Positions 33,001 through 36,000 of a DNA stretch of 64,000 bases are shown piece by piece. Numbering within the stretch: position 1 is the first letter of the stretch; every line of letters starts with the position of its first letter. The stretch is from an uncultured Bacteroidales bacterium. GTDB lineage: Bacteria; Bacteroidota; Bacteroidia; Bacteroidales; JAADJA01. A program made the position numbers. The DNA lies in assembly GCA_963764475.1 (NCBI GenBank), contig CAVXTE010000027.1, forward strand, positions 361-64,360, in the 5' to 3' direction.

Positions 33001-36000
33001 CATTCTAATTACAGTTCGTCAAATGAAGAGAATACAATTCAGGCAAAAATCCTTCGGTTCATACCAGCTGTTAAATTTACTACAGGACAGCATAAAATGA
33101 ACCCCTATATGAAAGCCGGAATAATTATCGGTACAGCAGCTAAAATCGTAAGTACAATGAAGGGTTCATACACCAATATGTCTTTTCCACATACGTATGA
33201 TGAAGAAGTTGAAACTTCGGGAAACATATCCTTCGGATTTGCGGGAAGCCTGGGTGCCGATTATGCATTAGCCGATCATATTGGTATTTTTGCAGAGATC
33301 AATGTAATGACGCATAGCTGGGCACCAAAAAAATCGGTAATCACACGAAATATACAGAATGGAACCGACCAGTTACCGACAATGTCAACCAATCAAAAAG
33401 AAACCGTCTATGTCGACAGTTATACATACGATGGGACGATTGATCCTGATTCCCCGGATAAAGAAACAACTATACACGTTCCCCTGAGCAGTGTTGGTTT
33501 GAACGTCGGTGTTCGGTTTAATATTGGGGGGAAGAAGGAATAACTAAAGTTGCCTTCTAAGCTATCTGATGATCCACCCTTCTTAATAATTCAATCAATC
33601 CTAAATACCGCAATCACCCGTTTAATCGGATAAATCATTATTAAAATGATCCGGTAGCCCCGGCCTTAAGGCTGGGGCTACTATTAAGGCCGGCACTGCA
33701 CGGCAAACTCCCATCCCCAAAAAACAAAAACCGGCCAGAAGCAAACCGCCCCGGACCGGTATAAACTCAACTTCTGTGGAATTTATTCCTCGTTGATCGT
33801 TACCTCAAAGCTACCTGCATTATCTTTATTCGGATTGTACACCATTAAAAACAAATTTGCTTCAGCGCCCAGTTCTGAGGCATAAGTATCCACTTCCTCG
33901 TCCGGCTTTAATTCGAGATGCGTACCCGGCACCGGATCGTCGGGCAGGTTGGCCGTGTAAAAATGCAGCACCGTGCTGCCGCTGTTTACAAGGTGGAAGC
34001 CGGTATTGGCATCGAATCCGCCGTGCATGATCGTCACTGCCGTTGCCGGGGCAACGGGACCGCTTATCGGTTTCGGTTCATCTTCTCCGTCTCCCGAAGT
34101 CTTATGCGAAGGTTTGCGTACGATACTCTGATCGAAATAAACGCCGGCTGCATCGGGATTGCCGATGTTGTTCATAGCGATGGTAAGCAGGTTTTTCATG
34201 AGCTGGATTTCGAGCGTGTCACGTTTTTGTTTCGTGGCAAGACGTTTGCCGTCGGTACTGCCGATATTGTTGAGCTGCGTTGTACGAGCGTTTTTATAAT
34301 TATTCACAACGGTTTCGAACTGCGTACCGAAATCAACAGGCAGTTGTCCGCTGTGATTGCCGATTGCTGCCACAAACCTCGACATAAGGATCTGGATGTT
34401 TGCTTTGGTAGCCTGGTGGTATTCGTCGAGTCCGAGCGGAAAAAACTCCTCGTATTCGGCTGATTTTTTGCCCCAGGTTCCTTTAATGATACCTTCTTTC
34501 ATCGATACCAGGTCGATAAATTCCTCCATGTACTGATCGACCAGGATGGTAGAGCCTTCCTTGACACTCTGGCTGTGCGCCTCGGTGCCCATGGCTGAGA
34601 AATACTTGTCGTACGCCGCCTGCGTTTCATCGAGCATCGCGGTGTACAGACCTTCAGGATTATTCGCCGTAAGCTGCTGGATATGCATCTGGGCGAAACG
34701 GTTCATGTTGTCGTCACTGACTTTATCAGTGTCAAAATGGTTTTTAAAAAAAATTTCGAATTGAATCATGGTTGTTTTTTTTGTTTAACAAATAGTTTCG
34801 AAAACAAATTTAGGGTAGCATGCTATGAATGCGTTTAAAATGTGAAAAAAGTTATTAAACATGAATTGTTGAAAAAGTCACGAGCATACGGGTTTATCCT
34901 TGTTTTATGAAGGAAAACCGGTAAATCCGGCAAAACGGGGAATGGGTCGTATCCCTCAATTTTTTTTTGCGAAAACATGATTGAAGAACTCTGGAATAGC
35001 ATTTCCAACTTTGACAATCCGACCACAGAACTCTGGAATGGCATTTCCAACTTTGACAATACGACCGCAGAATTCTGGAATGGCATTTCCAACTTTGACA
35101 ATACGACCGCAGAACTCTGGAATAGCATTTCCAACTTTGATAATCCAACCACAGAACTCTGCAATGGTATTTCCAACTTTGATAATGCTACCGCAGAACT
35201 CTGGAATGGCATTTCCAACTTTGACAATACGATCGCAGAATTCTGGAATGGCATTTCCAACTTTGACAATACAACCACAGAACTCTGGAATAGCATTTCT
35301 AACTTTGACAATGCGACCGCAGAGTACTGGTGGCAGGCATTCCGGTTTTTCGGTTGAATAAACGGGAAATTTATATACATGATGATTGCTGTGAAATTAA
35401 ACCTGATTAAATAGTTGCCGATAATGAATATTTGGTATTTTTGAGGTGAAAGAAACAGCCTAAAGTTCTATTAAAAAATGATTGTAATAGTTGACGGTAT
35501 GAAAATTTAAATTAATTTGGTCGTACCAAAAAAACGAAATGAAACGACAAACCGGAACTGGCAGAAAAGATTTACTAAGTAAAAAAGCGCATTTTATTCC
35601 CTTATTTATACCTATAGGGTATGTAAACGGGAAAAAAGTTCCTGTTATAATCCTGTTGAACTAAACCGCCCCCTTACGGAGGCGGTAATTTTTTGTTAAT
35701 TTTAGGGTGCTAAATCTTAAAATTAAACAAAAAATGAACGATCAAAATTCTTTGCTCATTGAGCGGATGGTCCGCGAGATGCAGCTTCGCAACTACAGCG
35801 AGAGAACCATCAGAAGCTATTCAGCTTCCATGTCAAAGGTAGAAAATTTTTACAATTTACCGCTTGACAAAATCACCACCCAGCAGTTCAAGGATTTTCT
35901 TCACCGGCGAATCACAGTTGACAGGATTTCAGTATCTATGGTAAACCAGGGTATCAGTGCATTTAAAATCATACAGACAGATATTCTGGACAGGCAGTGG

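Follow-up and report, generated by a model that had tools for sequence, protein, structure and literature searches.

The window analysed here, 64,000 nucleotides (nt) from an uncultured Bacteroidales bacterium (assembly GCA_963764475.1, contig CAVXTE010000027.1, positions 361 to 64,360 of the forward strand), contains a tandem array of 42 base pair (bp) units close to the start of a gene that encodes a protein of 328 amino acids (aa), here called p328. An array of this kind and a gene of the p328 family together form a two-part module that is conserved throughout the phylum Bacteroidota, and the pairing, widespread as it is, is apparently undescribed. A preliminary description of the window, which had weighed a repeat protein against an iteron-like or centromere-like array, missed this context; judged by the many homologous loci compared below, the array is the upstream partner of the p328 gene. 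We propose, with a probability of about 0.45, that it is a helically phased cis element that acts at the level of DNA and is operator-like or enhancer-like in character. The parts of the module in the window, in window coordinates, are the following.

33783-34769, minus strand: gene for p328, the conserved partner of the array
34770-34984, minus strand: spacer of 215 nt from the array to the p328 start codon
34805-34812, minus strand: -7 promoter box of the Bacteroidetes type, TAAATTTG, located in the spacer 43 nt ahead of the ATG
34917-34931, minus strand: weak hairpin resembling a terminator, GCCGG-ATTTA-CCGGT and then TTTCCTT, in the part of the spacer that separates array and promoter box
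34985-35323, no strand assigned: tandem array, 8.1 x 42 bp, with the plus-strand consensus GAACTCTGGAATGGCATTTCCAACTTTGACAATACGACCGCA (Tandem Repeats Finder and unit table)
35034-35049, no strand assigned: example of the inverted repeat within the unit, TGGAA-N6-TTCCA, which recurs every 42 bp from 34992
35067-35076, no strand assigned: example of the junction palindrome CAGAAYTCTG, here the perfect 10-mer CAGAATTCTG
35322-35344, no strand assigned: degenerate partial ninth unit at the gene-distal end of the array, GAGTACTGGTGGCAGGCATTCCG

The pairing of array and gene is evident within the genome from which the window comes. This genome has at least eight arrays of period 41-42 whose units are quite different from one another, and p328 paralogues (identified with tblastn) lie beside three arrays other than that of the window, with the array 170-250 bp upstream of the gene start each time. 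About eight arrays of this kind in 4 Mb give any random stretch of 1.5 kb a likelihood of only 0.3 % or so of holding one. A p328-type protein was found in 20 of 401 Bacteroidales genomes, some of which have five or more copies, and 30 homologue loci in this order yielded 26 distinct upstream arrays. The period is 42 in 23 of these, 41 in two and 43 in one, the copy number ranges from 2.6 to 14.3 and the spacer to the ATG from 46 to 479 bp; most of the loci scored as lacking an array are still periodic at a lag of 41-44 bp. Metagenome homologues with 36-64 % identity have the identical arrangement, and it is kept in other orders and classes of Bacteroidota, where the most distant members have 21 bp arrays of 9-17 copies. 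Nearly all of about 45 further homologues from across the phylum have an upstream array, with a period of 42 (34 cases), 41 (9), 43 (1) or 21 (4) and 2.6-17 copies. Five copies of the module each are present in the complete genomes G588, G753 and G230. The loci are chromosomal, for example beside rpsB-tsf, with up to five or more per chromosome; no constant neighbour gene is seen in their gene tables, and searches of 72,556 plasmids and 50,697 phages gave no member of the family.

The array noted in the preliminary description is confirmed, with minor corrections: Tandem Repeats Finder reports 8.1 copies with 89 % matches, no indels and a score of 531. There are eight full units, the first beginning at 34986, and the ninth, partial unit is present although degenerate, extending to about 35344. 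The inverted repeat TGGAA-N6-TTCCA, which had been assigned to each unit, is exact in six of the eight, and a second palindrome, CAGAAYTCTG, bridges seven of the unit junctions. Ten columns vary among the full units. Because the units are quasi-palindromic, their orientation relative to the gene is ambiguous from the units alone (29 versus 28 matches); it is settled, tentatively, by a motif of the distal flank, GCCACCA-N3-CTCTGC as read on the gene strand, which lies in the ninth-unit region and has a match in the distal flank of L062, a homologous array. The unit is present at a single locus of its own genome and is not dispersed, and a search for terminal inverted repeats, as at the ends of MITEs (miniature inverted-repeat transposable elements), found none at the array. 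A set of dispersed single transcription-factor sites was considered and rejected, copies of the core motif elsewhere in the genome being no more frequent than expected by chance.

In the single genus of the bacterial family, five of 29 species have one array each, with a related 42 bp unit and unrelated flanks; we refer to these as sister arrays. The sister array of genome G012 abuts a remnant of a p328 C-terminus. Exact-pattern scans of genome and metagenome collections recovered only one more array of the window type, on metagenome contigs L021 and L022, and the unit subfamily of the window comprises eight arrays, three of them gene-linked. Its members have the core TCTGG...ATTTCCAA.TTTG, followed by a variable tail. 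We note that heptamer repeats of the type TCTAACC occur just distal to arrays of this subfamily (L061:2019-2052, L062:284-314 and L021 at about 6660-6700) and are absent from the window.

Several lines of evidence bear on how such an array might work. The Bacteroidetes -7 box TAnnTTTG, searched on the gene strand within the last 70 nt before the ATG, is found in 6 of 26 loci against 1.2 in shuffled sequences, and this enrichment argues that transcription of the gene starts from a promoter of its own, which lies beyond the array on the side of the start codon. On the gene strand, the far side of the arrays shows no such enrichment (2 of 25, with 2.2 expected), nor does the other strand of the spacer, where a box would point into the array (2 of 26, with 4.8 expected), and nothing in these sequences suggests a dedicated promoter that reads into the array. 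By a crude scan, a terminator-like hairpin with a T-run is present in about 6 of the 26 spacers. The possibility that the array is itself a row of tandem promoters was rejected, since the exact TAnnTTTG motif occurs in only 3 of 30 units; a relaxed form of the motif and TTTG are about two-fold enriched on either strand of the units, a suggestive signal that is not a general one.

The units themselves tend towards two-fold symmetry more than chance would give. Compared with its own reverse complement, a unit has on average 24.1 versus 20.2 matches of 42 (p < 0.05 in 9 of 26), and the longest perfect inverted-repeat arm averages 5.70 bp versus 4.31 bp in shuffles (standard deviation 0.18). Perfect palindromes without a loop are found in several units, TTTTCGACGTCGAAAA, CCGGAGATATCTCCGG and CTGAAGCTTCAG being examples, and 13 of 30 units contain an A/T tract of at least five, with 4.8 expected. 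Predicted RNA folding shows no strand bias, the gene strand being the more stable in 14 of 26 arrays (Wilcoxon p = 0.75).

The evolution of the arrays is distinctive in that the period is held at 42 bp (sometimes 41 or 43, and 21 in distant members) while the sequence of the unit changes almost completely. Unit similarity drops as the N-terminal domain of the accompanying protein diverges (Spearman 0.30, P = 2e-6) and reaches the noise level by about 50-65 % identity. Copy number also changes, two close relatives having 5.8 and 4.8 copies at the same rpsB-tsf site. Genome G230 has five modules whose genes and spacers are 93-95 % identical, and of these three have a 41 bp unit and two a 42 bp unit; all that the two kinds of unit have in common is about 19 nt with AAAAAGTTTTT at the centre, a pattern suggestive of a core site joined to a linker that is constrained in length and not in sequence. 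The five copies (L091-L095) are dispersed over one chromosome of 4.2 Mb (G230:C1), the homology among them reaches variable lengths downstream of the gene, and an GGTTTACACAGTTTTTTGG motif is common to the distal edge of three of the arrays; the modules there may be part of a larger repeated or mobile segment.

p328 itself has no match in Pfam, NCBIfam, PADLOC, PHROG or the sequences of the PDB. A profile search of 1.84 billion representatives returned 2,077 clusters at E <= 0.001, the family size of about 2,000 being a count of clusters at 50 % identity, and the members are unnamed wherever names exist. AlphaFold models are confident, with a predicted local distance difference test (pLDDT) score of 89 for the full length and 94 for the N-terminal domain, and predict an elongated N-terminal bundle (residues 1-215) with two helices of about 55 residues as its framework and, after it, a beta-sandwich of eight strands (residues 235-326). 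In relatives the sandwich is missing, or is swapped for one or two CarboxypepD_reg-like domains, and it is therefore the helical domain that defines the family. Foldseek searches with the full-length and N-domain models found no significant analogue. A signal peptide is absent from proteins of the p328 family, and one basic stretch, at 161-185, surrounds the conserved residues R162, Q165 and R183. The array rule offers a first handle on this family, since an unannotated group of about 2,000 clusters gains a near-invariant non-coding partner of which the length is conserved and the sequence is not.

Well established is the module itself, in which a non-coding array of units of about 42 bp, a spacer that contains a promoter for the gene and the p328-family gene follow one another in that order; what we propose is that the array works as double-stranded DNA. 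The array would present a row of two-fold-symmetric sites on one face of the helix, 42 bp corresponding to four turns and 21 bp to two; on them a complex of protein and DNA would form immediately upstream of the promoter, and the complex would set or switch expression of the p328-family gene, with copy number as a tuning knob. Four features fit a role at the DNA level, which we favour: where the array lies with respect to the promoter, the palindromes without a loop, the A/T tracts in phase and the absence of a strand bias. Dyad-symmetric sites upstream of the promoter of an accompanying gene, which are a feature of operator arrays, are what is found here. The obvious candidate binder is the p328 product, because unit sequence and protein diverge together. 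Tandem operator arrays are known upstream of autoregulated genes, examples being the centromere-operators of type Ib and type II partition operons and the MetJ boxes, and they resemble the p328-linked arrays in having repeated dyad-symmetric sites immediately upstream of a promoter and a sequence that co-diverges with the neighbouring gene. They differ from them in that the 42 bp unit is much longer and in that the p328 product, for which DNA binding is only putative, has no recognisable DNA-binding domain.

There are also observations that weigh against this proposal, and the identity of the binder is its weak point: co-divergence would favour the p328 product, and the acidity and predicted fold of that product lend it no support. 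The median isoelectric point of the family is 4.9, and neither sequence nor fold searches found a recognisable DNA-binding fold in it. The nearest shapes are those of long helical sensor domains and surface receptors (McpS, TorS and trypanosome receptors), at template modelling (TM) scores of 0.5 or less, none of them significant. Helical phasing alone would permit periods of three or five turns, and none is seen. Finally, arrays of the window type persist without the gene in G003, G014/L021 and G044.

Formally the array can be seen as a variant of the repeat-gene pairings already known, and it is a member of none of them. Literature searches on 42 bp or 42 nt bacterial repeats and on minisatellites of Bacteroidota gave no match, and in the papers searched no account of the arrays or of the p328 family was found. 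As a system the module is easily testable, the questions being how a length of 42 bp is measured, what the units bind to and whether expression is tuned by copy number.

It is possible, though on balance doubtful, that the module is a new self-contained accessory system of Bacteroidota in which a novel rod-shaped protein has the array, either as DNA or as RNA, for its specific partner; the possibilities include a DNA-templated protein filament and a protein-nucleic-acid pair with a role in addiction or defence. Either form, if true, would possess a molecular ruler of four helical turns with no counterpart among described repeat-gene systems. Were the partner to be the p328 protein or an RNA, the module would represent a new class beside CRISPR (clustered regularly interspaced short palindromic repeats), type III toxin-antitoxin, iteron-Rep and centromere-ParB systems.

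The main rival to a cis element of DNA, and in our judgement an unlikely one, is that the array is transcribed and cut to 42 nt RNAs that bind and neutralize the protein encoded next to it, in the way that ToxI neutralizes ToxN. Type III toxin-antitoxin loci (toxIN, cptIN and tenpIN) have tandem units of 31-62 nt upstream of one gene, with one promoter preceding the repeats and a terminator separating these from the toxin gene (Blower et al., 2012; PMC3401426). The gross architecture is alike, a single gene being directly preceded by a tandem nucleotide repeat (PMC3401426). In both cases the units are locus-specific and the loci accessory, patchy and often multi-copy, the 20 of 401 Bacteroidales genomes being a case in point, and the unit length is kept while its sequence diverges. 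Broken or lost genes beside surviving arrays (the split paralogue of contig C47, described below, the G012 remnant and several copies with stop codons) and the weak hairpin and T-run between array and gene in the window would also fit. However, the promoter box sits between the array and the gene, with none enriched upstream of the arrays, and a terminator-like hairpin is present in only a minority of the spacers. The p328-family protein, acidic and of about 320 aa, is roughly twice the size of known toxins and is unrelated in sequence and predicted fold to the ribonucleases (RNases) ToxN, CptN and TenpN, with no match to these, to PADLOC or to any RNase. Copy number rises to 14-17, compared with at most 5.6 in type III loci, and the period is far more rigid in the p328-linked arrays. 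The lack of a strand bias in RNA folding argues against an RNA role, and the loop-less palindromes suit sites in DNA better than hairpins in RNA. A known RNA family was likewise rejected as an identity for the array, Rfam giving two sub-threshold matches, neither of them within it.

A minisatellite without function, or a selfish one, slippage-prone or MITE-like and merely travelling with the gene, is distinctly improbable. In its favour are the rapid change of copy number and unit sequence, the existence of orphan arrays, the many homologue contigs that terminate at the array and the occurrence of minisatellites in Bacteroidales (PMC4596501). Among these is BrickBuilt of Porphyromonas gingivalis, which has 23 nt units with a leader and a tail that end in inverted repeats; a genome has 19 occurrences of it, all with one and the same unit, and it shows no tie to a particular gene family (Klein et al., 2015; PMC4596501). 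BrickBuilt and the window array are both spacer-less tandem repeats in Bacteroidales, always intergenic and with promoter-like content, but the window array has neither the terminal inverted repeats nor the dispersed copies, its unit being confined to a single locus. Nor would a neutral repeat be expected to hold its period, at 42 or 21, and its position 5' of one gene family across classes. The pairing of array and gene accounts for one recurring source of broken assemblies and of spurious open reading frame (ORF) calls in Bacteroidota genomes.

That the array is an iteron set of a replicon or the centromere of a partition system, one of the two identities raised in the preliminary description, now seems very improbable. 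Such arrays, for example sopC of plasmid F with its 43 bp units or iterons of about 22 bp, have internal inverted repeats and are double-stranded binding platforms. The form does agree, the units being tandem, helically phased over a whole number of turns and provided with internal inverted repeats, but the likeness is one of form only because genes for plasmid replication or partition are not found nearby: Pfam and NCBIfam scans and gene tables revealed no Rep, ParA or ParB gene near the array, in the window or at the other loci. In addition, the p328-linked arrays occupy intergenic sites of chromosomes, upstream of one gene family, that family being absent from the plasmid and phage collections.

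The other identity, a repeat protein, had been based on two open reading frames that run through the array.

34977-35357, plus strand: ORF of 126 aa with ELWNGISNFDNTTA repeats, judged spurious (no homologue, frame broken in sister arrays)
34835-35380, minus strand: ORF of 181 aa with SKLEMPFQSSAVVL repeats, judged spurious (no family match, frame closed in G012 and truncated in L021, the metagenome copy at the G014 site)

Through the array, four of the six reading frames lack stops, as had been reported in general terms, and the minus-strand ORF does have 181 aa and stay open past the repeats, although the distance from its end to the gene is 65 nt (p328 starts at 34769) and not 66. Five of the ten variable columns lie at third positions in both the plus and the minus ORF frames, four of the five being synonymous on the plus strand, but with one third expected this hint of coding is not significant (binomial P of about 0.2). 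The plus-strand ORF has no homologue among 5.8 billion protein clusters, a database check that the preliminary description had put forward, and neither ORF has a match above noise in Pfam or NCBIfam. In the sister arrays the plus frame has TAG for TGG in seven units plus one TAA (G003), two TGA codons (G044) or no start codon (G014, where the metagenome copy at the same site has one TGA), and no frame is open in all five. Over the 26 related arrays, 45 of 156 frames are open, which is the chance level, and five arrays have no open frame at all. The consensus units of the sister arrays differ at codon positions one, two and three in 10, 7 and 9 columns (hand count), and there is therefore no third-position excess. 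Judged by these frames, the array is non-coding, and a repeat protein with a period of 14 residues on one strand, to which a period divisible by three, two long ORFs and the four synonymous changes might have pointed, is rejected as scarcely credible, since the plus-strand ORF lacks homologues, the frames are broken in sister arrays and periods of 41 and 43 occur.

The array had also been placed at the edge of a mobile-element region. The IS91 transposase and the tyrosine recombinase of this region are confirmed (35707-37758), and we judge the position of the array beside them to be incidental. Within the region, 35659-35749 (minus strand) has a match to the Rfam Phe leader at 33.5 bits, well below the gathering score of 55, which overlaps an inverted repeat at 35683-35740 with 21 nt arms that spans the start of the tyrosine recombinase gene; this is probably a hairpin site of the mobile element and not a leader. 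Components or cargo of type IX secretion (PorV/PorQ-like, Por_Secre_tail) lie within a few kilobases of the array in the window (29500-33543) and at L025, L028, L029 and L065; such cargo genes are often near the modules, which may be no more than chance.

Several further arrays have features of their own. On contig C47 of genome G000 (14332-15367) a p328 paralogue is split into two overlapping ORFs beside an intact 42 bp array, and is either a frameshifted pseudogene or the product of an assembly error. Two more 42 bp arrays of G000, at C26:1329-1532 and C102:61492-61644, have no p328-like neighbour and units that are related to each other; their stems differ by compensatory changes (CTCTTG/CAAGAG versus CTTCCG/CGGAAG) around a conserved CATA loop, and the C26 array alternates between 42 and 43 bp. 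A 41 bp array of nine copies in the same genome (C59:5766-6136) is closed by stops in each of the six frames, and a p328-family gene is absent from the surrounding 2.5 kb. At C29:912-1108 of G000 a 21/42/63 bp array lies just downstream of two tandem paralogous genes encoding proteins of 307 and 308 aa with the N-terminus MNDIQENKLS, which do not match the p328 profile. Unrelated 21 bp and 42 bp arrays in other Bacteroidales (L007:1350-1639 and L008:1-248) gave weak translated matches to the plus-strand ORF of the window, and arrays with a period of 21 or 42 bp are therefore common in the order.

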